From an uncultured Solirubrobacterales bacterium (GTDB lineage: Bacteria > Actinomycetota > Thermoleophilia > Solirubrobacterales > Solirubrobacteraceae), in assembly GCA_963837655.1 (NCBI GenBank), contig CAWIOK010000013.1, forward strand, positions 54,078 through 78,077: a stretch of 24,000 bases of DNA, written 5' to 3'. The notes under the pieces are model-generated. The model had not been told where the DNA came from. It was given only the letters and a program-made list of their open reading frames with translations, and made no database searches. The position numbers were made by a program, and so were the translations under genes. This document shows positions 5,809-15,355 of the stretch, in pieces. How positions within the stretch are numbered: position 1 is the stretch's first letter; every line of letters begins with the position of its first letter.

Positions 5809-7577
5809 CAGAGGGCCAGGACGCGTCGCAGGACGTCATCGAGCACGCCGCGCGGGTCCTCAGCGGCATCCTGCGCGCGCCACGCGACGGCGCGGTCGGG
5901 GCGGACCAGGATCGCCCCGGAGCGTCCGAAGTCTCGCTGGCGAAGCCAGGCGCAGCGCGGGTCGAGCCAGTCACCCTCGAGGTGTCCGATGCGCACGGCC
6001 GTCATGTCGATCTCCATCTCGGTCGCGAGATCACGGGCCGCCGTGCACCAGTCGTCCCCGTCCTCGCCGGCGATGAGCATGAACCCGCGCGACGGGGCGA
6101 GGTCACGAAGCGCGATCCGCGTCCCGTGGCGCTCGACCCATGCGTGGGGGAGCGGCGAGCCCGGACGTGTGCCGGGCTCGTACACGCGGATCGGTTCCAC
6201 CGGCGGGACCAGCGGGCTCCCGTCGGGGACGACCGCCGCGGACTCGTAGGCGTGGCCGAACTCGACGTTCTGCTCGCTGAACTCCATCGACTGGCTCGCG
6301 ACGACGGGATGGGCCGCTTCCCGGAGCGCCTCTCCGTCCGGGCTGTCACTCCACAGAAGCCTGGATCGTTCGACGTTGACGGCCGGATCGCCCTCCGGGT
6401 CGATCCCGATCGCCCGGATCAGCGCGCCGTGGTTCATGGCGTTCTCGACCGCGCGCTGCGTGTTGCGTGCATCGATCGGGAATCGCTCGGGCTCGTAGGA
6501 GGTCAGCAGGTCCTCGCCCGCCCGCCCGTCGAGCACATGCGCGAGCTTCCAGCAGAGGTTGTAGGCGTCCTGCACGGCGCTGTTGAGGCCGAGTCCGCCC
6601 GTCGGGGGGTGGCGATGGGCGGCGTCGCCCAGCACGAACACGCGTCCGACCTGCATCGATGAGGCGAGCAATCCCTCCATCGACCAGCGCGTGACCACGT
6701 GGATCTCGGGGTCGAAGTCCGGCAGGCCGAGACGCAGGCGCATCTGCGCGAGGACCTTCGCGTCGTCGTCGTACAGCGGCTCCTCGGGCACCGGGTAGTT
6801 CATGTGGAACACCCACTCCTCCGAGCGCGTGCCCCAGTGCTCAGGCCCCATGGGGACCAGCACGCTGAAGCGGTCGCCCAGCGCCGGGTGGACGATCCAG
6901 CGGATGAGGACGTCGTCGTCGCGCATCCATGGGGAGAGGTCCGCCGAGAGGTGGACGCTGACCGAGCGCATGACGTCGCGTTGGCCCTCCATCGTCACCC
7001 CCGCCTGACGCCCGACGGTGCGGCCGCCGTCGCAGCCGAGCAGGTAGCGCGCGCGGACCGTGTACTCCACGCCTGCATCGTGATCGCGGACCGTCGCGGT
7101 GACGCCGTCGTCGTCCTGGTGCAGCGACTGCAGCTCGTGGCCGAAACGCACGCCGCCCGGGTTGAGCTCCTCGGCGCGGGCGCGCAGGAGGGGCTCGAGG
7201 CGGATCTGAGGGAGGTTGGTCTGTCGGCACGGGCTGGCGGCGACCCACGCCGGGTCGGTGTAGCCCGCCCCCCAGCACTCGAGCTTCGCGATGAGCCGCC
7301 CCGCATCGGGGTCCTCGCCCGCGACGTCGCGGTACCAGGCCGTGTGGCTCATGTGCTCGGGCGGGCACCCGCGCGCGTAGACGTCGTCGGCGACCCCGAC
7401 CTCGCGGAAGATCTCCATCGTGCGCTGGTGCAGCACGTGTGCCTTCGGCATCACCGACGTCGTCGGCAGCGCGCTGACCAGGAGCGACTCCACGCCCTGG
7501 GTGGACAGCAGCATCGAGGCGGACAAGCCCGCGCCACCACCCCCGACGATCAGCACCGGCACCTCGATCTGCGACAT
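5808..7577 (-). CDS. FAD-dependent aromatic-ring monooxygenase (phenol 2-monooxygenase / PheA-TfdB-like, class A)
   Basis: GxGxxG fold VLIVGGGGAGLSAS, GD motif VFVLGDAAHRHPPTGGLGLNSAVQDAYNLCWKL, and a ~200-aa C-terminal extension as in phenol-hydroxylase-like enzymes. Preferred start is ATG 7577 (MSQIEVPVLIVGGG), preceded by GGAGGAGAGG; the track start at 7649 is unlikely. Confidence 0.9.
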   Translation of the reverse strand: MSQIEVPVLIVGGGGAGLSASMLLSTQGVESLLVSALPTTSVMPKAHVLHQRTMEIFREVGVADDVYARGCPPEHMSHTAWYRDVAGEDPDAGRLIAKLECWGAGYTDPAWVAASPCRQTNLPQIRLEPLLRARAEELNPGGVRFGHELQSLHQDDDGVTATVRDHDAGVEYTVRARYLLGCDGGRTVGRQAGVTMEGQRDVMRSVSVHLSADLSPWMRDDDVLIRWIVHPALGDRFSVLVPMGPEHWGTRSEEWVFHMNYPVPEEPLYDDDAKVLAQMRLRLGLPDFDPEIHVVTRWSMEGLLASSMQVGRVFVLGDAAHRHPPTGGLGLNSAVQDAYNLCWKLAHVLDGRAGEDLLTSYEPERFPIDARNTQRAVENAMNHGALIRAIGIDPEGDPAVNVERSRLLWSDSPDGEALREAAHPVVASQSMEFSEQNVEFGHAYESAAVVPDGSPLVPPVEPIRVYEPGTRPGSPLPHAWVERHGTRIALRDLAPSRGFMLIAGEDGDDWCTAARDLATEMEIDMTAVRIGHLEGDWLDPRCAWLRQRDFGRSGAILVRPDRAVAWRAQDAAEDPRGVLDDVLRRVLAL

Positions 7578-7600: not shown

Positions 7601-7618
7601 CTGTAACGATCGTTCCAG
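7601..7618. promoter_or_regulatory. 18-bp palindrome in the monooxygenase/TetR divergent intergenic region (TetR operator candidate)
   Basis: CTGTAACGATCGTTCCAG, with a perfect 10-bp core AACGATCGTT and 16/18 overall symmetry. It lies between ATG 7577(-) and GTG 7641(+). Confidence 0.45.
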
Positions 7619-7640
7619 ACAGAGTAGATAGGCTTGCCGC

Positions 7641-8301
7641 GTGACGCAAGCGGCCGCACGGCTGACCAAGCGCCAGGAGCTCGGGGAGCGTTCGCGGCAG
7701 GAGATCCTCGACGCCGCCTCACGGCTGATGGCGGCGCACGGCTACGACGGCGCGAGCATCTCGCACATCGCGAAGGAGTCCGGCCTGCCGGCGAGCTCGA
7801 TCTACTGGCACTTCACCTCGAAGGCGGGTGTGCTGGAGGCGGTGATGGAACGGGGCGCCGACCGGTTCTTCGCCGCGTCGAGTCGTCGTCGACGTCGTCG
7901 TCGACGTGCGCGACGGCGCCACGCCGCGGGACGTCCTGCGCGCGCAGCTGCGCCTGGCCGCTGCCGGTATCCGCCGCGACTCCGACTTCCTGCGCCTCTT
8001 CATCCTGCTGCTGCTCGCCGGCGGCCCGGACGACACCATCGTGCGGGTGCGCCGCAAGGGCCGCGAGCGCCTGCATGACCAGATCCGCACCGCGTACGCG
8101 CCCCACGGCGCGGCGACGGCGACGCTCGTCGCCGACCGGCTGGTCGACTTCGCGGTCGGCGTGTTCGACGGCGCCTTCCTGGCCGTCCAGAACGACCCGA
8201 CGCTCGACTACGAGCCGCTGCTCGTGCTCATGGCCGATGCGATCGCGGCGTTGGGCGACGAGATCGCCGCGAAGCTAGGTGACGCCCGCAGCGCGATCTG
8301 A
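7641..8301 (+). pseudogene. TetR family regulator, reading frame broken near 7879-7882
   Basis: The HTH half in the GTG-7641 frame (RSRQEILDAASRLMAAHGYDGASISHIAKESGLPASSIYWHFTSKAGVLEAVMERGADRFF) runs into an Arg-run nonsense tail. The ligand-domain half (..DGATPRDVLRAQLRLAAAGIRRDSDFLRLFILLLLAGG..FAVGVFDGAFLAVQ..) continues in the +1 frame to the stop at 8299-8301. Confidence 0.8.
7882..7905. repeat. perfect 12-bp tandem duplication GTCGTCGTCGAC x2 inside the TetR gene
   Basis: Read directly: GTCGTCGTCGAC at 7882-7893 and again at 7894-7905, encoding VVVD-VVVD in the downstream frame, immediately after the frame break. Confidence 0.9.
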
Positions 8302-8748
8302 GAGGCGTGCGAGCAGTCGATCGGCGACCTCCGTCACGGGCTCGGTCGTGCTGAGGACGAGGTCGGCGGAGCGGCGAAGCAGCGGCTCGATGTCCGCGAG
8401 ATCGGCGAGCACCTGGCTGCGCTGTGCCTGCGTTCGACCGTACGCGTTCGAGGTTCGCGTCCTGAGTCGCGTCACGATCTCGTCCTCAGGCGCGGTCAGC
8501 AGGACGCGACAGTCGAACGGCAGCTCGATCTGCTCCTCGGAGCACCCGGCGAAGAAGAGCACGTCGCCGTCGGGGACTTGGGCGAGCAACGAGGCCACGG
8601 CGTCGATGCGCCAGCCCCACCGGTCGTCGGCGCGCGGCTCGCTGAAGCCGTCGTCGTCGGCGTCGTAGGCCGCATAGCCTCGCCGGCGCAGCTCCTGCAC
8701 GAGCGTCGACTTCCCGGATCCGGACATCCCGGTGAGCAGGACGCGCAT
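8275..8748 (-). CDS. small P-loop NTPase (AAA_18/AAA_33-like kinase family)
   Basis: ATG 8748 gives MRVLLTGMSGSGKSTLVQELRRRGY.. (Walker A GMSGSGKST), 157 aa. The longer track ORF to 8988 would read through the tRNA-like repeat and is rejected. Its 3' end overlaps the TetR 3' end convergently. Confidence 0.75.
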   Translation of the reverse strand: MRVLLTGMSGSGKSTLVQELRRRGYAAYDADDDGFSEPRADDRWGWRIDAVASLLAQVPDGDVLFFAGCSEEQIELPFDCRVLLTAPEDEIVTRLRTRTSNAYGRTQAQRSQVLADLADIEPLLRRSADLVLSTTEPVTEVADRLLARLSDRAAGVT

Positions 8749-8813
8749 CGCCGGAAGGTACCTGTCGGTGCTGGTGCTTCCGCGTGACCGCGCGGGCGTA
8801 CGGCCCGCCCACG

Positions 8814-8989
8814 CATGGCGAGACCCGGACTCGAACCGGGGACACCACGATTTTCGTGGCAGTCCTCGAGGGTTTCGGGTGTCTCGGTCTGACCGCACTT
8901 TGACCTGCAAACGCAGCTGTTCTAGCTCCCGGTCGAGTCCGGCGATCTCGGGCCGTCTCGGTCGGTTCTGTTCGCAGGATGTTCGCACG
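8814..8989 (-). repeat. ~176-bp direct repeat, copy 1 (att-like: tRNA-Phe 3' segment plus conserved arm)
   Basis: Aligns by eye with 16253-16427. The first ~42 nt are identical and the rest is roughly 85-90% identical with one 1-nt indel. It contains an internal repeated 9-mer GTCTCGGTC at 8881-8889 and 8955-8963. Confidence 0.85.
8816..8855 (-). other. 3'-terminal 40 nt of a tRNA-Phe(GAA) (anticodon loop to discriminator); not an intact tRNA
   Basis: The minus strand reads GAAAATCGTG-GTGTC-CCCGG-TTCGAGT-CCGGG-TCTCGCC-A. That corresponds to GAA anticodon/loop, 3' anticodon stem, 5-nt variable loop, T-arm with TTCGAGT loop, 3' acceptor strand and discriminator A. The matching 5' acceptor GGCGAGA and D-arm are absent upstream. 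Confidence 0.75.
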
Positions 8990-9192
8990 CATGCGCGAGT
9001 CAGGTGGGCGCTCCCTCCTCCAGGAGCGCATACACCGGTACCTCATCACCGTGCTCTCGTGCTTGTCCGCCCGGCGCGCCAACGCGGGGTCGACAATCCA
9101 GCTGGCCGGGCTCCTGTGCATCGCCGCGGGATGCGGTTCCGCAAGCGGTTTACGATCCGACTCCGACCCCGAGTCACGTCCTGGGACTGACT

Positions 9193-9522: not shown

Positions 9523-9785
9523 GGGTAACCGGACGGCGTCTGGAGGATGTGGCGCGCCTTCGCTGTCCGTCCTGACCTACCGGACGATCGCGCTGTCGAA
9601 CTGGCTCTCCGCGCGAAGACGATCACCTTGGGGGTGGGCACGCGTCCACGACGAGCGCCTCGTGCAGGGACGCTTCGACGGTGGACACGCTCGGGCTGCT
9701 GGTGGGACCGACCGCGCGATCCGGCGCCCCCGAGCTCTCGGATCAGGCTCCGGGGTCAGCGGGGCACCATGCAGCGCAGCGACGT

Positions 9786-10688
9786 TCAGGCGTCGGCGCT
9801 CGAGCGCTCGAGCGCCGCAATGAGCTGCAGCGTCTTCTCGTCGTCGAAGTTGCCGTGTTCGCGGGCGAGGATGAGGCCCGAGCGGTCGACGAGCAGGACA
9901 CCGATCGTGTCCGTGCCGGGCAGTCCCAGCTCGCGCACGGCCTTCCCGACGTCTGTGTAGACCGTGATCGTCCGGGCGCGGGCGGCGTCGGTCCCGACGC
10001 CGCGCGCCATGCCGCCGTCGATGAACCACCGGGCGGGCGAATACGCGGATGAGAGGACCGGCAGCTCGAGGACGGCGACGTCCGGGCGGCGCTCCTCCAG
10101 GTCGATCAGCCATGGAAGCCATTCGTCGACGAGCGCCTGGTGCTCACGGCGGAACGCGGCGACGATGAACGTGCGCCGCGCGCGCAGGTCGTCGGGCAAC
10201 CGGTGGTGACTGCCGTCGAGGCCCCGTCCCGACAGAGGCGGCAGCCGTCCCGGCCGGAGACTGCCGAGCGTCTCGCGCAGGCCTTCGAGGGCACGATCCC
10301 CGACGCGCTTGAAGGCGAGCCCGAGGAGCGGATCGGCGAACCGCAGTGGCCCCTTCAGGGCGAGGTCCGCGTCGTACGTGACCCGCGTGCCTCCATCGGT
10401 CGGCTCGAAGGTGATCCGGTCGAGCGAGACGACCGTCGCGTTCTCGCCCCGCAGCGTGACTGCTTCGCCCGGCTCAAATTCGACGATCCGGTAGGTGAGC
10501 GCGGCCTTGCGGCCGAGGAAGTCCGCCACGACGCGGAACTCCGTCCCCTCGCCGACCGGAGCATCGCCGAGCCGCTCCGCCTCGACGACGCCCGGATCCC
10601 ACTCCTCCGTCGTGGAGAAGTCGCTCAGGTACGCGAACGTCTCGGCCGGCGGACGCGGCGTTTCGATGCTTGCGGTGTAGCGGGCCAT
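9786..10688 (-). CDS. SRPBCC (START/polyketide-cyclase-like) domain protein with C-terminal extension
   Basis: N-terminal half MARYTASIETPRPPAETFAYLSDFSTTEEWDPGVV..GTEFRVVADFLGRKAALTYRIVEFEP.. is typical of SRPBCC ligand-binding domains. The C-terminal ~140 aa (TFIVAAFRREHQALVDEWLPW...ITVYTD...) is unassigned. Confidence 0.8.
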   Translation of the reverse strand: MARYTASIETPRPPAETFAYLSDFSTTEEWDPGVVEAERLGDAPVGEGTEFRVVADFLGRKAALTYRIVEFEPGEAVTLRGENATVVSLDRITFEPTDGGTRVTYDADLALKGPLRFADPLLGLAFKRVGDRALEGLRETLGSLRPGRLPPLSGRGLDGSHHRLPDDLRARRTFIVAAFRREHQALVDEWLPWLIDLEERRPDVAVLELPVLSSAYSPARWFIDGGMARGVGTDAARARTITVYTDVGKAVRELGLPGTDTIGVLLVDRSGLILAREHGNFDDEKTLQLIAALERSSADA

Positions 10689-10863
10689 GAGCTTTCTCCC
10701 ATCTGTGTGCGCGTGGGTCGGCGGTCGTCCCAGAAGCCGCAGGAACTCCCGCTCGGCTCGGCAGCCGCGCCGAGCCAGGCGATCGTGTCCCTTCCGGGTC
10801 GCGGGCCGCGTAGCAGCGGCCCGGTCGGCCGGATGGGGGCGGGCGGTGCAGCGCGCACGTTCG

Positions 10864-11715
10864 CTAGACGGACACCTCCTCGGCGGCCTCGATCGGGCCT
10901 CCGTCGAGCAGTCGAGCCCCCGATCGCTCGGCCAGCTCGGCGTCGGCGCCGGCGCCGGCCAGCAGGACGGGCCGCGCGGCGGCCATCCGGGCGATCTCGG
11001 TCACGGCGGCAAGGAGCGGCTCGCGCGTCAGCGAGGAGACCACGACCACGTCGGGCGCGAGCTGATCGGCCGCGGCTGCGATCGTCTCGATCGGCGTGTC
11101 GGACCCGAGGAACGTCACGCGCCAGCCGCGCTCGCGCAGCGCGAGGCCGAGGATGATGAGCCCGAGGTCGTGGCGCTCGCCTGACGGGCAGGCGAGCAGC
11201 GCGCGAGGACCGGTGCCGCGGTCCCAGCCGCGCGCCAGACCCAGCAGCCGCGCACGCAGCACGCCCGTGGCGAAGTGCTCTTGCGCCACGGAAGCGTCGC
11301 CGTTGCTCCAGCGCTCGCCGAGCGTGCGCAGGTAGGGCAGGACGGCCGTCGCGGCGACGGCCTCGATGCTGAACGTCGCCACGAGCCGATCGAAGGCAGC
11401 CTGTGCGCCCGCATCGTCGAACCCGTCGAGCGCCGACCACAGCGCTGCGGCGAGATCCGCCGGAACGCCGTCGTGACGCGCAGCCGCCGGCGCGTCGCGG
11501 GCGAGTCGCGCCGCCTCGGCGGCCGACAGCCCCTGCGCGAGGTGGGCTCGCATCGATCGCACGCGCGCCTCGTCGTCTGCGGAGTACAGCCGGTAGCCGC
11601 TCGCGGTACGCGACGGCTCGAGGAGCGCGTAGCGGCGCTCCCACGCGCGGAGGAGGTCAGCGCTGACGCCGGAGCGCCGCGCCAGCTCACCGATGCGAAG
11701 CGTGCCGTCGGCCAT
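10864..11715 (-). CDS. CarH/LitR-type MerR-family regulator with adenosylcobalamin-binding photoreceptor module
   Basis: MerR HTH LRIGELARRSGVSADLLRAWERRYALLEPSRTASGYRLYS. The W-x9-EH signature is intact (RWSNGDASVAQEHFATG), followed by a Rossmann B12 domain with E-x-H-x-x-G (PSGERHDLGLIILGLAL). Preferred start is ATG 11715 (MADGTLRIGEL); alternatives are 11727 and TTG 11751. Confidence 0.85.
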   Translation of the reverse strand: MADGTLRIGELARRSGVSADLLRAWERRYALLEPSRTASGYRLYSADDEARVRSMRAHLAQGLSAAEAARLARDAPAAARHDGVPADLAAALWSALDGFDDAGAQAAFDRLVATFSIEAVAATAVLPYLRTLGERWSNGDASVAQEHFATGVLRARLLGLARGWDRGTGPRALLACPSGERHDLGLIILGLALRERGWRVTFLGSDTPIETIAAAADQLAPDVVVVSSLTREPLLAAVTEIARMAAARPVLLAGAGADAELAERSGARLLDGGPIEAAEEVSV

Positions 11716-11731
11716 GCCGGCGAGCATAGCT

Positions 11732-11764
11732 CTTGGACAAACTCTGTGCAAACACTTGACACAA
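11732..11764 (+). promoter_or_regulatory. three 11-bp-phased direct repeats (TnnACA cores), CarH/LitR operator candidate, array A
   Basis: CTTGGACAAAC / TCTGTGCAAAC / ACTTGACACAA occupy 11732-42, 11743-53 and 11754-64. The cores TGGACA, TGTGCA and TTGACA are exactly 11 bp apart. The third core is also a perfect -35-like TTGACA (11756-11761) facing the + strand genes. Confidence 0.55.
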
Positions 11765-11783
11765 CTCCGCGACGCGTGATTAG

Positions 11784-11812
11784 CTGTTCAGGGCTTGTCC
11801 AATGTTTGTCCA
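11784..11812 (-). promoter_or_regulatory. three 11-bp-phased direct repeats in inverse orientation, operator candidate, array B
   Basis: On the + strand, CTGTTCA (11784-90), TTGTCCA (11795-801) and TTGTCCA (11806-12). On the minus strand these read TGAACA, TGGACA and TGGACA at 11-bp spacing. The outermost repeat mirrors the first repeat of array A. The array overlaps ATG 11802. Confidence 0.5.
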
Positions 11813-12926
11813 TACATCTCCTTCGAGAGGAAGGTCATGCGCCACCACCACCACCACCGCCCGCCGCGGCGCTGCCGGGTTCGTCGCCGGAGTTGCCGCT
11901 CTGGCACTCGTGGCCGCGCCGGCCGGCGCGCGTACCGCTGCCGCCGCCGGCGTCGGCGACGTGTCCAACACGGCTGCCCTGAAGAAGGCGGGTGACACGC
12001 GGCTGACCCTTGACAAGAAGACCGGCGAGGCGCTCACGTCGCTGGGCATCAGGGTCGCGCCGGTGAATCCGTCGCGGGTTGCCGCGGGTGCCGTCGTGTT
12101 CCCCATCACGAGTGGATCGGTCGATCCGAAGCTCTCCGACGGGGCACTGATCAACCACTCAGGCGGCCTGCGGCTCACCAAGGGCGCCACGACGGTCGCG
12201 CTCCGGAACCTGCGCATCCGCGTCACGAGCTCGCAGGCGACGATCTCTGCCAGGATCGGTACCACCCGCGCGACGATCATCAACCTCGACCTGGCGAAGG
12301 CCAAGGCCACCCGCCCGGCACTGAACCTCCGTCTCAGGAACGTCGGGGTCAAGCTGAACGCGACGGGTGCGTCGGCGCTGAACAAGGCGTTCAAGACGAG
12401 CGCCTTCAAGAGCGGTCTGAAGCTGGGCACGGCGGTCGTCAACGCCCGCTTCGCGCAGTTCATCGTCGAGGGCGGCGACACGAAGCTCACCCTCGATCCC
12501 GGGACGCTCGGTGCGATCACCGGCGCGGGCTACACGCCTGCGATCGTCGCGCCCGCCACGCTCGGCGGGTCGGTGGCGACGTTCCCGATCGTCAAGTCGA
12601 AGATCGCGGCGAACCTGACGTCGGGCGTGATCAGCCACTCGGGCGGTCTGTCGCTGACCAAGCCCGGCACGACGATCAGCGCGACGGACTTCGACATCGA
12701 GCTGTCGGCCAACCCGACGCTCGCGGCCTCTGTCAACGGCGCCCTGCCCAAGGCCGACATCCTGAACCTCGATCTCGCGGACCTGAAGCAGACCGTGGCC
12801 GGCGGGACGGTGACGCTGGACGGCGTCGCCGCGAAGGTCAACACGACGCTCGCCACCGCACTCGGCCTCCCGTCGGCGGACGGCGCCACGCTGGGCACGG
12901 CGGTCGTCACGGCCAACATCCGTTAG
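11802..12926 (+). CDS. secreted protein with two tandem ~150-aa repeats (family not recognised)
   Basis: Signal-like N-terminus ..TARRGAAGFVAGVAALALVAAPAGA. Two homologous units (aa ~67-218 and ~228-374) share LTLD..., FPI..., I(N/S)HSGGL(R/S)LTK, NLDLA and LGTAVV. The start is uncertain (see findings). Confidence 0.75.
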   Translation: MFVHTSPSRGRSCATTTTTARRGAAGFVAGVAALALVAAPAGARTAAAAGVGDVSNTAALKKAGDTRLTLDKKTGEALTSLGIRVAPVNPSRVAAGAVVFPITSGSVDPKLSDGALINHSGGLRLTKGATTVALRNLRIRVTSSQATISARIGTTRATIINLDLAKAKATRPALNLRLRNVGVKLNATGASALNKAFKTSAFKSGLKLGTAVVNARFAQFIVEGGDTKLTLDPGTLGAITGAGYTPAIVAPATLGGSVATFPIVKSKIAANLTSGVISHSGGLSLTKPGTTISATDFDIELSANPTLAASVNGALPKADILNLDLADLKQTVAGGTVTLDGVAAKVNTTLATALGLPSADGATLGTAVVTANIR

Positions 12927-12952
12927 CCGAACCGAGCGCGAAACACGCAGGA

Positions 12953-12980
12953 GCGAGGGCGGCTCGCGGGCGGCCCTCGC
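12953..12980 (+). terminator. GC hairpin downstream of the secreted-protein gene
   Basis: GCGAGGGC (12953-60) pairs with GCCCTCGC (12973-80) around a 12-nt loop, 27 nt after the stop at 12926. There is no U-tract, so it may be only a partial terminator before the heliorhodopsin gene. Confidence 0.35.
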
Positions 12981-13053
12981 TATCGCGTCACGCTGCGCCC
13001 TTCAGAAGCGCTGGTCGCACCGTCGTCCCGGTCCGCGTCCCTAGGCTCCGCAG

Positions 13054-13839
13054 ATGTCCCCGGCCACGCAATCGCAGCTCGACGCGGCGGCGGCCTCCCG
13101 GCTGCGTCGTCTGAACGTCATCGTCGGCTCCGCGCACGCAGTGCAGGCGGTCGTCCTGCTGGCGATCGCGACGGCCGTCTCGCTGCCCATCACGGCGTCG
13201 TTCCTGGTCGGTCCGCCGGGCGCCGGGGACTACGGCTCGGCGAGCATCGGCAGCGTGCGGATCGACTGGCTCGTCGCCGCGTTCCTGTTGCTCGCCGCCG
13301 TCGACCACCTGACCCTGAGCGGCGGACCGCCGCGCCGCTGGTACGAGACGAACGTCGCGCGCGGGATCAACCCGGCCCGCTGGTGGGAGTACTCGCTCAG
13401 CGCGTCGCTCATGATCGTGCTCATCGCGATGCTCTCCGGGGTCACCGAGCTCGTCGCCCTGATCGCCCTGTTCGGGGTGAACGCCGCGATGATCCTGTTC
13501 GGGCTCGTGCAGGAGCGGACGAACGTCGACCGCGAGGAGACCGACTGGCGGCCGTTCGTCTACGGGTGCGTCATCGGCGCCGTGCCGTGGATCGCCATCG
13601 CCGCCCAGCTCGTCGTCTCCACCACCGACGGCAACGGCGTCCCCGGTTTCGTGGTCGCGATCTTCGTCACCCTGTTCCTGCTCTTCAACACGTTCGCGGT
13701 GAACATGTGGCTGCAGTACCGCAGACGCGGCCGCTGGGCGGATCCGGTCTTCGCCGAGCGCGTCTACCTCCTCCTGAGCCTCGTCGCCAAGAGCGCGCTG
13801 GCGTGGCAGGTCTACGCCGGCGCGCTCGCCGGCAGCTGA
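13054..13839 (+). CDS. heliorhodopsin (7-TM retinal protein, inverted-topology rhodopsin family)
   Basis: 261 aa, collinear by eye with the heliorhodopsin reference 48C12 as I remember it: LPITASFLVGPPG, NPARWWEYSLSASLMIVLIA (Glu112 counterion position), ALFGVNAAMILFGLVQE, GAVPWI, VPGFV, LFLLFNTFA, and C-terminal ERVYLLLSLVAKSALAWQVYAG with the Schiff-base Lys (K246, nt 13789-13791). Confidence 0.9.
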   Translation: MSPATQSQLDAAAASRLRRLNVIVGSAHAVQAVVLLAIATAVSLPITASFLVGPPGAGDYGSASIGSVRIDWLVAAFLLLAAVDHLTLSGGPPRRWYETNVARGINPARWWEYSLSASLMIVLIAMLSGVTELVALIALFGVNAAMILFGLVQERTNVDREETDWRPFVYGCVIGAVPWIAIAAQLVVSTTDGNGVPGFVVAIFVTLFLLFNTFAVNMWLQYRRRGRWADPVFAERVYLLLSLVAKSALAWQVYAGALAGS

Positions 13840-13848
13840 CGCGGTCGC

Positions 13849-14247
13849 TCACGACGTCGCGTCCCCCGGGCGCCCGCCGTCGACGGCGATCGCGAGGGCG
13901 TGCTCCCGGGCGAGGGTCGTGAGGCGCGTGGCCTCGGCGAACGGGTCGCCGGTGAGCAGGAGCACGCCGTCCGCCTCCGTGATGCCGCTCGCGGCGGCGG
14001 CGCCGCCGAGGGCGAGGCGCTGGTGGGCGGCGAGGGCCCGCAGCTGGTCGACGACCGGCTGCACGCGCTCGTCGGTCATCGTGCTGAGGACGACCAGGGT
14101 CGGCTGGAGACGGCTGCTCGCGTCGTCGACCGTCTCGATCGGGGCGTCGGGCCCGAGGTAGAGAATGCTCCACCCCTGCGCACGCAGCGCGAGACCGAAG
14201 GCGATGAGGCCGAGGTCGTGTTGCTCGCCGGGCAGGCAGGCGAGGCG
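13849..14247 (-). pseudogene. 5'-truncated second CarH/LitR-like gene (B12-binding Rossmann domain only)
   Basis: In frame with the 76-aa track ORF but lacking any start: ..RLACLPGEQHDLGLIAFGLALRAQGWSILYLGPDAPIETVDDASSRLQPTLVVLSTMTDERVQPVVDQLRALAAHQRLALGG.. aligns with the B12 domain of 10864-11715, including ExHxxG. No MerR HTH or Wx9EH helical bundle is found in any upstream frame. Confidence 0.7.
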
Positions 14248-14675
14248 ATCTCGCCGGGCTCGAGGCGTCGCTCGCTCACGACGTGCACCTGACCGGTGAC
14301 GGGGGCGGCAAGGTTCCGGCGCTCACGCGGCCGCTGCGCGGACGCAACCGCGTCGCGAACGCGCTCATCGGCTGGTCCCGCCGAGCCGGCCGCATCCCGG
14401 GCATGTCGATACGCCCCGTCGAGGTGAACGGGGTCGCCGGAGCGCTCCATCTCGACGCAGGGCAGCGGCTGATCGCCGTCGTGGCGCTCGAGATCGCCGA
14501 CGGCCGGATCACGAGCATCAGCTCGGTCGTCAACCCCGACAAGCTCACGCACCTCGGGCCGGTCGCGGACTTCGCGCGCTGCTCAGGTCGGCGGGATGAG
14601 CGTGTCGATCGCGTCGTCCGCGGGCATGGCGGTCAGACGTGGGCGACGAGCTCGGGCGGGATGCGCCCGGCGTAG
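14244..14675 (+). pseudogene. 5'-truncated SigJ/ECF41-like sigma factor gene (C-terminal SnoaL-like part only)
   Basis: GDLAGLEASLAHDVHLTGDGGGKVPALTRPLRGRNRVANALIGW...IRPVEVNGVAGALHLDAGQRLIAVVALEIADGRITSISSVVNPDKLTHLGPVADF matches the C-terminal extension of SigJ-type ECF sigmas as I remember them (..SDGGGK.., ..VNG.PG.., ..NPDKL.HLG). Sigma regions 2 and 4 are absent. Confidence 0.6.
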
Positions 14676-15355
14676 TGGGGCTCCCAGTCGGCGGGCACGC
14701 AGCCCTCGGCCTCCATGCGCGCGAACTCGGCGGCGTCGCGGTCCAGGACCTTGGCCACGGTCGGGCGTGCCTCGCAGCGCCGCCCGTGATCGGTGCACCG
14801 CGGGAACGGTGCGGGATCCATGCCGGACCCGACCGCGCGCCACCACAGGTAGAGCATGTACACGTCGATGACCGACCAGTCGCCGAACAGCCAGTCGCGC
14901 GTCTGCAGGCGCTCCTCCAGGATGGAGAACGCGGCCGCCAGCTCCTCGCGCGCGTGCAGCCGGATGCCCTGCCACTCGGCGGGATCCTCCGACGTCGTGA
15001 AGCGCCCCGGGAAGCGGTGCCGCGCCACCGCCGGGTGCAGCCCGCTGGCGAACCACGCCATCATCTCCGCCGCGGCCGTCTCCGTGCGCTCGTCGCCCGC
15101 GGGCAGCAGCCCGGCCTGCGGGAACCGGCGGTCCAGGACCCGCAGGATCACCGGGTTCTCGGTGATCACCCAGTCGTCGAGCCGAAGCGCCGGCACCTTG
15201 CCCTTCGGGTTGACCGCCCTGAACTCCGGCGACTGCATCTCGCCCTTGAAGGCGTTGAGCGTCTGCACCTCGAACGGCTCGCCGATCTCCTCCAGCGCGA
15301 CGTAGACGACCCGCGCGCAGGTGCCCGGCCGCCAGAACAGGGTGATCGAGGTCAT
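14633..15355 (-). CDS. glutathione S-transferase family protein
   Basis: ATG 15355 (MTSITLFWRPGTCARVVYVALEE..) is preferred over the track start at 15406. It has a thioredoxin-like N-domain with NPKGKVPAL and a helical C-domain (..DWLFGDWSVIDVYMLY..). Confidence 0.85.
   Translation of the reverse strand: MTSITLFWRPGTCARVVYVALEEIGEPFEVQTLNAFKGEMQSPEFRAVNPKGKVPALRLDDWVITENPVILRVLDRRFPQAGLLPAGDERTETAAAEMMAWFASGLHPAVARHRFPGRFTTSEDPAEWQGIRLHAREELAAAFSILEERLQTRDWLFGDWSVIDVYMLYLWWRAVGSGMDPAPFPRCTDHGRRCEARPTVAKVLDRDAAEFARMEAEGCVPADWEPHYAGRIPPELVAHV

Follow-up and report, generated by a model that had tools for sequence, protein, structure and literature searches.

We describe a 24,000-nucleotide stretch of DNA from an uncultured Solirubrobacterales bacterium (contig CAWIOK010000013.1, positions 54,078 to 78,077; G+C about 70%), hereafter the window, in which an intact heliorhodopsin (HeR) lies near a gene for a regulator of the CarH/LitR type, predicted to sense light through adenosylcobalamin (AdoCbl). 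We show that the link between heliorhodopsins and B12-binding regulators of this kind is real and recurs across genomes. For the window itself, we lean towards a reading in which the direct target of the regulator is a secreted protein, Sec, encoded between the two genes, and in which HeR is promoted separately. The genes and signals on which this analysis turns are the following, where PWM denotes the score against a position weight matrix and HTH a helix-turn-helix.

10864 to 11715, minus strand: predicted CarH/LitR-type AdoCbl photoreceptor-repressor, 283 aa, with a MerR HTH, a four-helix bundle and a Rossmann B12 domain (Pfam, NCBIfam and PDB matches)
11723 to 11751, minus strand: putative carH promoter, −35 TTGCAC (11751-11746), 17-nt spacer, −10 TATGCT (11728-11723), 7 nt to the ATG at 11715
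11733 to 11765, plus strand: predicted operator O1, three tandem 11-bp direct repeats TTGGACAAACT CTGTGCAAACA CTTGACACAAC; PWM 40.4
11756 to 11785, plus strand: putative rightward promoter between O1 and O2, −35 TTGACA (11756-11761), 18 nt, −10-like TTAGCT (11780-11785), read from the sequence
11781 to 11813, minus strand: predicted operator O2, three 11-bp repeats in the opposite orientation, ATGGACAAACA TTGGACAAGCC CTGAACAGCTA; PWM 29.3
11802 to 12926, plus strand: secreted protein Sec, two tandem domains of the HtaA/ChtA CR fold; the gene directly behind the putative CarH-operated promoter
12952 to 12981, plus strand: GC-rich hairpin without a U-tract, 3' of the Sec stop codon, resembling a terminator or 3'-end stabiliser by its fold and conservation
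13042 to 13047, plus strand: putative HeR promoter, −10-like TAGGCT, 6 nt before the HeR ATG, implying a leaderless mRNA
13054 to 13839, plus strand: heliorhodopsin HeR, intact, 261 aa (Pfam PF18761, 4.9e-90; NCBIfam HeR; PDB 6su3)

The regulator, its operators and Sec

The regulator is a genuine CarH/LitR-type repressor, for which B12 binding and a response to light are expected by analogy. Pfam recognises MerR_1 (9e-16), B12-binding_2 (1.3e-8) and B12-binding (PF02310, 1.6e-12), and the Thermus CarH/LitR structures 5c8d and 3whp align over the full length of the protein (E=4e-41). Its top NCBIfam match is TransRegCarH, at 167 bits and under the equivalog cutoff of 400. The literature uses RxWERRY, Wx9EH and ExHxxG as markers that distinguish true B12 photoreceptors from B12-independent paralogues; Wx9EH touches the adenosyl group and divides CarH from the B12-independent CarA (PMC9304148). 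The recognition helix is kept as LRAWERRY opposite LRQWERRY of 3whp, Wx9EH is intact as WSNGDASVAQEH opposite WHRGEIGVAEEH of Thermus CarH, and the lower-ligand motif ExHxxG reads ERHDLG opposite ERHEIG of the same protein. We also sought the longer Rossmann motif D/ExHxxG-x41-SxT/V-x22-27-GG, whose His is the lower ligand; by a hand count, which makes the spacing approximate, ERHDLG is followed by SLT at about 42 residues and AGAG stands where GG is expected. The domains, the structure alignment and the motifs thus agree with the sequence-only reading of this DNA, which had placed an intact Wx9EH and ExHxxG in this gene.

Within the 86 bp that separate the carH ATG (11715) from the ATG at 11802, 11-bp repeats form two arrays of three, identified with a PWM built from nine loci, the window among them; once shifted overlaps of O1 and O2 are set aside, the runner-up site in the 24-kb window scores 8.7. 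In published CarH operators, three or four copies of an 11-bp direct repeat, nnnnTnnACAn, stand in tandem and overlap the −35 or the −10; in the Thermus operator one repeat includes the −35 TTGACA (PMC9304148). In the register used in the literature, O1 reads CTCTTGGACAA / ACTCTGTGCAA / ACACTTGACAC; two of these repeats are full and one is partial, and the third includes the −35 TTGACA of the plus-strand promoter. The phased operators that had been proposed for the divergent region therefore correspond to O1 and O2, both in keeping with the published operator. Among the relatives' stretches carrying HeR, Sec or CarH that we compared with the window (labelled L001 and so on), the O1 layout also precedes the CarH homologues of L001, L075, L047, L042, L030, L039, L071 and L003, and the PWM finds it in L086, L088, L163, L166 and L167, on which it was not trained, making 13 related loci in all. 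An inverted array equivalent to O2 is present in L001, L030, L042, L086, L088, L163 and L166.

A scan of positions 10700 to 14700 with E. coli-type promoter and terminator consensuses returned zero promoters and one irrelevant terminator-like site, so the promoters listed above were read by eye and with the help of conservation. The putative carH promoter overlaps direct repeats DR1 and DR2 of O1, and relatives carry TATAGT or TATGCT hexamers at the position equivalent to its −10; because this −10 lies only 7 nt from the ATG, the carH mRNA is probably leaderless. TTAGCT falls mostly within O2, which also takes in the predicted start of transcription and the ATG at 11802. With the carH promoter overlapping O1 and the rightward one placed between O1 and O2, a single repressor complex on the DNA would close both, and we infer, by analogy with characterised CarH systems, that carH is autoregulated in a divergent layout with the operator placed over both promoters.

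The window shares with Thermus thermophilus CarH/LitR (5c8d, 3whp) and Bacillus megaterium CarH the motifs RxWERRY, Wx9EH and ExHxxG, the 11-bp repeats that include the −35 and, as predicted, the divergent autoregulated layout. In contrast to those systems, the apparent targets are a secreted HtaA-fold protein and a nearby HeR rather than carotenoid genes, and a second, inverted three-repeat array covers the −10 and start region. The window's regulator also falls short of the NCBIfam equivalog cutoff for CarH (167 bits against 400), and its B12 binding, oligomeric state and light response are predictions.

Sec contains a domain of about 155 residues twice, the two halves sharing 38% identity (E=3e-22). 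The Pfam HtaA match, at 26.5 bits, just exceeds the cutoff of 24, and the AlphaFold model (pLDDT 87, first ~52 residues disordered) resembles CR domains in Foldseek (6jsc, 6jsa and 9o0k; E 1.6e-5 to 3.4e-5, target TM 0.65-0.72), with 6jsc as the best match (E=1.6e-5, TM 0.70) and identities to CR domains of 11-14%. Each half of Sec, as modelled, appears to have the fold of the HtaA/ChtA CR domains of Corynebacterium (6jsa, 6jsc, 9o0k). CR domains bind haem through a Tyr axial ligand. The invariant columns of Sec differ in this respect, comprising His119 and His279, each within an HSGG, plus a Phe, and no invariant Tyr. The internal repeat bears out the earlier description of 11802-12926 as a tandem-repeat protein; its secretion is predicted from an N-terminus that has the look of a signal peptide, judged by eye only.

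The divergent CarH-Sec pair with its operators recurs in L163, L166 and L167. In the window the start of Sec is shifted: the Shine-Dalgarno-linked ATG of the relatives (11837) is out of frame, flanked relative to L163 by two 2-nt indels (window 11820-11845), and the open reading frame (ORF) stays open from the ATG at 11802, inside O2. This change of frame may come from a mistake in the assembly, a shift of the start codon or the onset of decay.

Heliorhodopsin and the interval behind Sec

HeR is covered by PF18761 over profile positions 1-242 of 242, scores 290 bits against the NCBIfam HeR cutoff of 100, and aligns over residues 16-258 to the heliorhodopsin 48C12 (6su3, E=7e-60). In that alignment H28, H85, E112 and K246 correspond to H23, H80, E107 and K241 of 48C12, and these residues are invariant across an alignment of 14 diverse HeR sequences, down to 41% identity, which we also used to scan for HeR loci. 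The earlier assignment of K246 as the Schiff-base Lys and Glu112 as the counterion is correct, because both align to K241 and E107 and are invariant in the 14 HeRs. The window HeR thus keeps all four of these 48C12 residues, the retinal Lys and the Glu counterion among them, and by this likeness would be expected to bind retinal, to sit inverted in the membrane and to have a long photocycle. The locus scan placed its nearest relatives in uncultured Solirubrobacterales and other Thermoleophilia genomes. Neither crt nor blh genes occur among the window's ORFs with Pfam hits, several further ORFs having no hit at all; the earlier statement that the window lacks retinal and carotenoid synthesis genes accordingly holds for ORFs with Pfam matches.

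HeR follows Sec on the same strand after a gap of 127 bp, and the U-less hairpin that the sequence-only reading had noticed between them is found at 12952-12981. A hairpin sits after the Sec stop codon in 7/7 Sec loci, with compensatory changes, whether or not a HeR lies behind it. The fold of the whole intergenic region (12924-13056) is no more stable than that of shuffled sequences (z = 0.58), which leaves the local hairpin as the one meaningful structure, supported by its conservation. These features suggest that it behaves like the 3' end of the Sec gene. In addition, L163, the closest relative, is 96% identical to and collinear with the window from 9555 to 12980 and then diverges at the hairpin.

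A TANNNT hexamer precedes the HeR start in 10/23 close loci with the window included, or 9/22 relatives; in these relatives it is mostly TACCTT, located 6 nt from the start in eight and 8 nt in one, and others have near-variants. Leaderless promoters of actinobacteria typically show a −10-like hexamer just before the start codon. We also considered a CarH operator directly upstream of HeR and rejected it for the window, where the best PWM score within 12927-13060 is −9; none was found upstream of the HeR of close relatives either.

Recurrence and rearrangement of the neighbourhood

The adjacency of HeR and CarH, which could have been a chance neighbourhood, is borne out as a recurrent one by a survey of GTDB genomes that covered 80 HeR loci at species level, their HeRs sharing 44-70% identity with that of the window. 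Searching all six frames of these loci for the B12 module with a hidden Markov model, we found an HTH-B12 regulator in 17 of the 80, in every case no more than 3.2 kb from HeR; the near flank totals 441 kb, and the 495 kb of farther flank yielded 0. Under uniform placement, the probability that all 17 would fall near is 0.471^17, or about 3e-6 from base counts. Each regulator combines an HTH with B12-binding_2 and B12-binding; 10 are MerR-type and 7 carry HTH_17 (Pfam, seed alignment). By phylum, 12 loci belong to Actinomycetota and 4 to Chloroflexota, the remaining one being L003. The HTH_17, or excisionase-like, regulators are those of L010, L011, L013, L014, L023, L032 and L080, and the Wx9EH and ExH motifs are intact in those of L010 and L011.

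The pairings show at least five architectures. In L075 (Gaiellales), 67 bp separate the carH ATG from the HeR ATG, O1 lies between them, and a TTGACA-17-TAGAGT promoter sequence leaves 8 nt to the HeR ATG. The operator of L047 (Anaerolineaceae) likewise has HeR as the first gene downstream. In L071, CarH is divergent from a sigma70_r4 protein that is directly followed by HeR. In other loci, genes on the HeR strand intervene between it and the regulator; they encode a small membrane protein with a GIFVGxWVPSI motif, a sigma70_r4 protein, or fasciclin proteins, of which there may be more than one. The GIFVGxWVPSI protein, of about 70-90 residues, turns up repeatedly between a B12-HTH regulator and HeR (L042 3231-3458, L039 6047-6259, L010 1877-2095, L011 3102-3377 and L003 ~7616-7753), has tblastn matches in 11 loci and belongs to no Pfam or NCBIfam family. 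We rejected a shared pull towards carotenoid clusters as the cause of the HeR-CarH link because crt, blh or type-1 rhodopsin genes are present in 2/167 loci and in none of the regulator-positive loci.

Among close relatives, the neighbourhood has been rearranged. L163 keeps the order of the window (SRPBCC, CarH, Sec, HeR remnant), and its HeR (8443-8799) is reduced to the last ~100-118 residues, about the final third. Within the same 90% protein cluster, several HeR members are fragments of 99-143 residues, some of them on contigs of up to 160 kb; short HeRs in close relatives may be partly the result of true decay and not of contig ends. HeR and carH converge in L166 and L001. The gene divergent to carH is Sec in L166 and encodes a fasciclin protein in L001 and L086. 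In all three of these loci HeR is found across carH from the rightward promoter, which cannot drive it there. These alternative arrangements still group HeR, CarH, the secreted protein and SRPBCC. In L164, Sec adjoins a phytoene synthase and a photolyase-related protein.

Two further observations concern the surroundings of HeR in relatives. In L100 (1-6800; HeR 83% identical), Sec and HeR stand without CarH beside a type-1 rhodopsin, a lycopene cyclase, a Blh-type beta-carotene dioxygenase, CrtB and CrtI, a cluster that amounts to a complete retinal supply with two kinds of rhodopsin adjoining. In L087 (~5830-5890) and L104 (~990-1040), AT-rich repeated or palindromic motifs, GATACGTGATACGTATTACGTATGTCAAGG and GATACACGATTTATGTATCACG, lie upstream of HeR; they differ from the CarH repeats, have no obvious regulator gene adjoining, and may be a site for another regulator.

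The window also contains a further neighbour of carH and, beyond HeR, two gene remnants.

9786 to 10688, minus strand: SRPBCC (Polyketide_cyc2) protein with a C-terminal extension, on the same strand as carH and downstream of it (Pfam PF10604, 1.4e-22)
13849 to 14253, minus strand: remnant of a second CarH-like gene, Rossmann B12-binding domain only, converging on the HeR 3' end
14289 to 14555, plus strand: remnant of a SigJ-type (TIGR02957) sigma-70 factor, C-terminal ~85 residues, head to head with the B12 remnant

The SRPBCC protein is a recurrent neighbour of HeR and CarH, with tblastn homologues in 7 HeR loci of the GTDB set and in several close relatives. The CarH-like remnant is 45% identical to residues 183-287 of the intact regulator, matches PF02310 (7e-10) and corresponds to positions 170-259 of the 274-position CarH model; frame analysis and Pfam find no HTH in 13849-14253 and no start codon upstream of 14079. 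The truncated CarH-like gene that had been described as converging on the HeR 3' end is thus present, as its Rossmann part alone. The sigma fragment had no Pfam match and was identified by NCBIfam (TIGR02957, 3e-18, model positions 195-280 of 281). The interval 13849-14555 looks like the product of a deletion that took both 5' halves of a former divergent carH-like/sigma pair, and the order of HeR followed by a convergent remnant echoes the convergent HeR/carH layout of L166. Streptomyces coelicolor LitR-LitS is a light-inducible system in which a B12-type MerR regulator is paired with the gene of a sigma factor of the extracytoplasmic function type. The remnant pair of the window is similar to it, as is the CarH/sigma70_r4/HeR arrangement of L071. 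In contrast to LitR-LitS, both genes of the window's pair are truncated, the intact regulator faces a secreted protein and not a sigma factor, and no crt genes were found among the window's ORFs with Pfam hits.

An element of ~185 bp occurs in two direct copies (8814-8998 and 16253-16437; about 92% identity, 7.44 kb apart), which flank the entire cluster from SRPBCC through a GST gene. Each copy opens with 42 nt that are 100% identical and whose minus strand resembles the T-arm and acceptor 3' end of a tRNA; L163 holds one copy of this 42-nt piece. ARAGORN and Rfam identified no gene in the elements, and Rfam and tRNA searches of the hairpin together with these repeats found nothing. The repeats could mark an integrated or mobile segment.

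Readings of the locus and their implications

The reading we prefer, with a confidence a little above even, is that the window is a light-response neighbourhood built around CarH, in which Sec is the direct target and HeR is promoted separately and mostly transcribed alone. By analogy with Thermus and Bacillus CarH, AdoCbl-loaded CarH would in the dark form oligomers on the two arrays of three 11-bp repeats, such that O1 would cover the −35 of the rightward promoter together with the whole leaderless carH promoter. O2 would extend over the greater part of the −10-like hexamer and, for the rightward gene, over its predicted transcription start and its ATG. Illumination would break the Co-C bond, the oligomer would disassemble, and both promoters would open. 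The architecture suggests Sec as the direct rightward target, with HeR behind the conserved terminator-like hairpin of Sec and equipped with a leaderless-type promoter of its own that has no operator. Given the hairpin, the separate promoter and the lack of an operator, HeR is here probably transcribed mainly alone, and light-dependent read-through from the CarH promoter would account for at most part of its expression. We propose that HeR stays beside the regulator because it belongs to the same light-related set of genes. In other lineages, the same kind of regulator would act directly on the HeR promoter.

Several points weigh against this reading. HeR has a weak −10-like hexamer, before which no clear −35 can be seen. 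Intact Sec followed by intact HeR occurs in just one further locus, L100, which has the hairpin and lacks the −10-like hexamer before HeR; this suggests that the two genes are co-transcribed there. U-less hairpins in high-GC actinobacteria may terminate weakly, in which case read-through could be substantial. The promoters, transcription starts and termination in the window are all predictions. The PWM was partly derived from the window itself. The 80 loci of the survey are the top matches to the window HeR rather than a random draw, and its counts include related species, which are not independent events. Finally, CarH is present in only 2 of the 80 closest metagenomic HeR contigs, many of them short, a caveat on the linkage.

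The sequence-only reading had favoured a CarH-controlled unit of Sec and HeR, and a unit of this kind, with the hairpin acting as attenuator or stabiliser and B12 photolysis turning on HeR in light, is the most serious competitor of the separate-promoter reading, if in our judgement a rather unlikely one. The two genes are on the same strand, 127 bp apart, behind an operator-bearing promoter, and the hairpin has no U-tract. The Sec-hairpin-HeR order recurs in L100, where HeR has no −10-like hexamer; HeR is the first gene of an operator-bearing promoter in L075 and L047, and same-strand strings of genes lead from regulator to HeR in L042, L039, L030 and L003. However, the hairpin is fixed at the Sec 3' end even where no HeR lies behind it, the HeR hexamer is kept in relatives at its spacing, homology to L163 stops at the hairpin with the L163 HeR truncated, and the HeR of L166, L001 and L086 lies beyond carH, out of reach of that promoter. 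What stands of the proposed unit is thus the operator-bearing promoter, the shared strand and the recurrent HeR-CarH link; the hairpin that closes Sec, the hexamer of HeR, the missing HeR operator, the L163 break and the convergent relatives speak against the rest.

A different explanation, after Cho et al. (2024), is that HeR binds or modulates the product of a neighbour, CarH or Sec, instead of being regulated by it. Published HeRs bind the products of their neighbours (glutamine synthetase, photolyase, ABC transporter), MerR is among ten neighbour groups proposed as interaction partners (PMC11109279), and the convergent HeR/carH genes of L166 and L001 are unlike the layout of a regulator and its target. 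We nevertheless regard this explanation as improbable: CarH already has its own chromophore and a full light switch, the operators are placed on promoters as in characterised CarH systems, the operator of L075 overlaps the HeR promoter, and the association of two unrelated HTH classes on the same B12 module with HeR is more easily explained by light-regulated transcription than by an interface conserved between the proteins. Still less credible is that local rearrangement brought HeR and CarH together with no functional tie. The scarcity of CarH on metagenomic contigs, the evolutionary lability of the junction seen in the L163 break and the 185-bp direct repeats flanking the region would be compatible with such an accident, which has to be set against 17 of 80 loci paired, all at 3.2 kb or less and 0 farther away (about 3e-6 under uniform placement), two phyla, two HTH classes, at least five architectures, and the same four genes staying grouped through several rearrangements in close relatives.

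CarH/LitR proteins, whose usual targets are carotenoid genes, and their operators of 11-bp repeats are well characterised (PMC9304148), and heliorhodopsins have been reported to act on the products of neighbouring genes. Among the ten groups that Cho et al. (2024) list as frequent neighbours of HeR is the 'MerR family transcriptional regulator'; they proposed protein-protein interaction (PMC11109279). In contrast to that annotation, the neighbour in the window is by its sequence a complete B12 photoreceptor, with operators. The article by Cho et al. has no mention of B12, CarH or LitR and its supplements contain no text on MerR or B12; Bulzu et al. 2021 (PMC8612252) has no mention of MerR, B12, LitR or CarH. 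A full-text literature search for heliorhodopsin and CarH returned no paper linking them, and no such link is apparent from the titles and abstracts of papers on heliorhodopsin and B12. The arrangement had been called uncharacterised, which has to be qualified, in that a MerR neighbour was already listed in PMC11109279, and stands in that its identity as a B12 photoreceptor was not stated there. As far as we have searched, then, HeR-MerR adjacency was known at the level of annotation, and what is new is a complete B12 photoreceptor with operators, sometimes on the HeR promoter.

The window itself is the weaker case, with Sec as the probable direct target and HeR probably promoted separately. 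More broadly, we give an even chance to the proposal that in many Actinomycetota and Chloroflexota HeR is a regular member of B12-photoreceptor regulons, governed by either MerR-type CarH/LitR or HTH_17-B12 proteins, and serves as a light-induced effector, produced only once another photoreceptor has signalled light, that acts with co-regulated envelope proteins. If so, its envelope partners would be secreted fasciclin or HtaA-fold proteins, the GIFVGxWVPSI membrane protein and SDR-DUF2867, which would provide a testable handle on HeR function, and compact loci such as the 67-bp carH-HeR region of L075 allow direct tests with light and B12. The recurrent, position-specific link suggests that HeR is often made only in light, as part of a wider light regulon, and the target set of CarH/LitR would widen beyond carotenoid and photolyase genes to include a retinal protein and secreted proteins.

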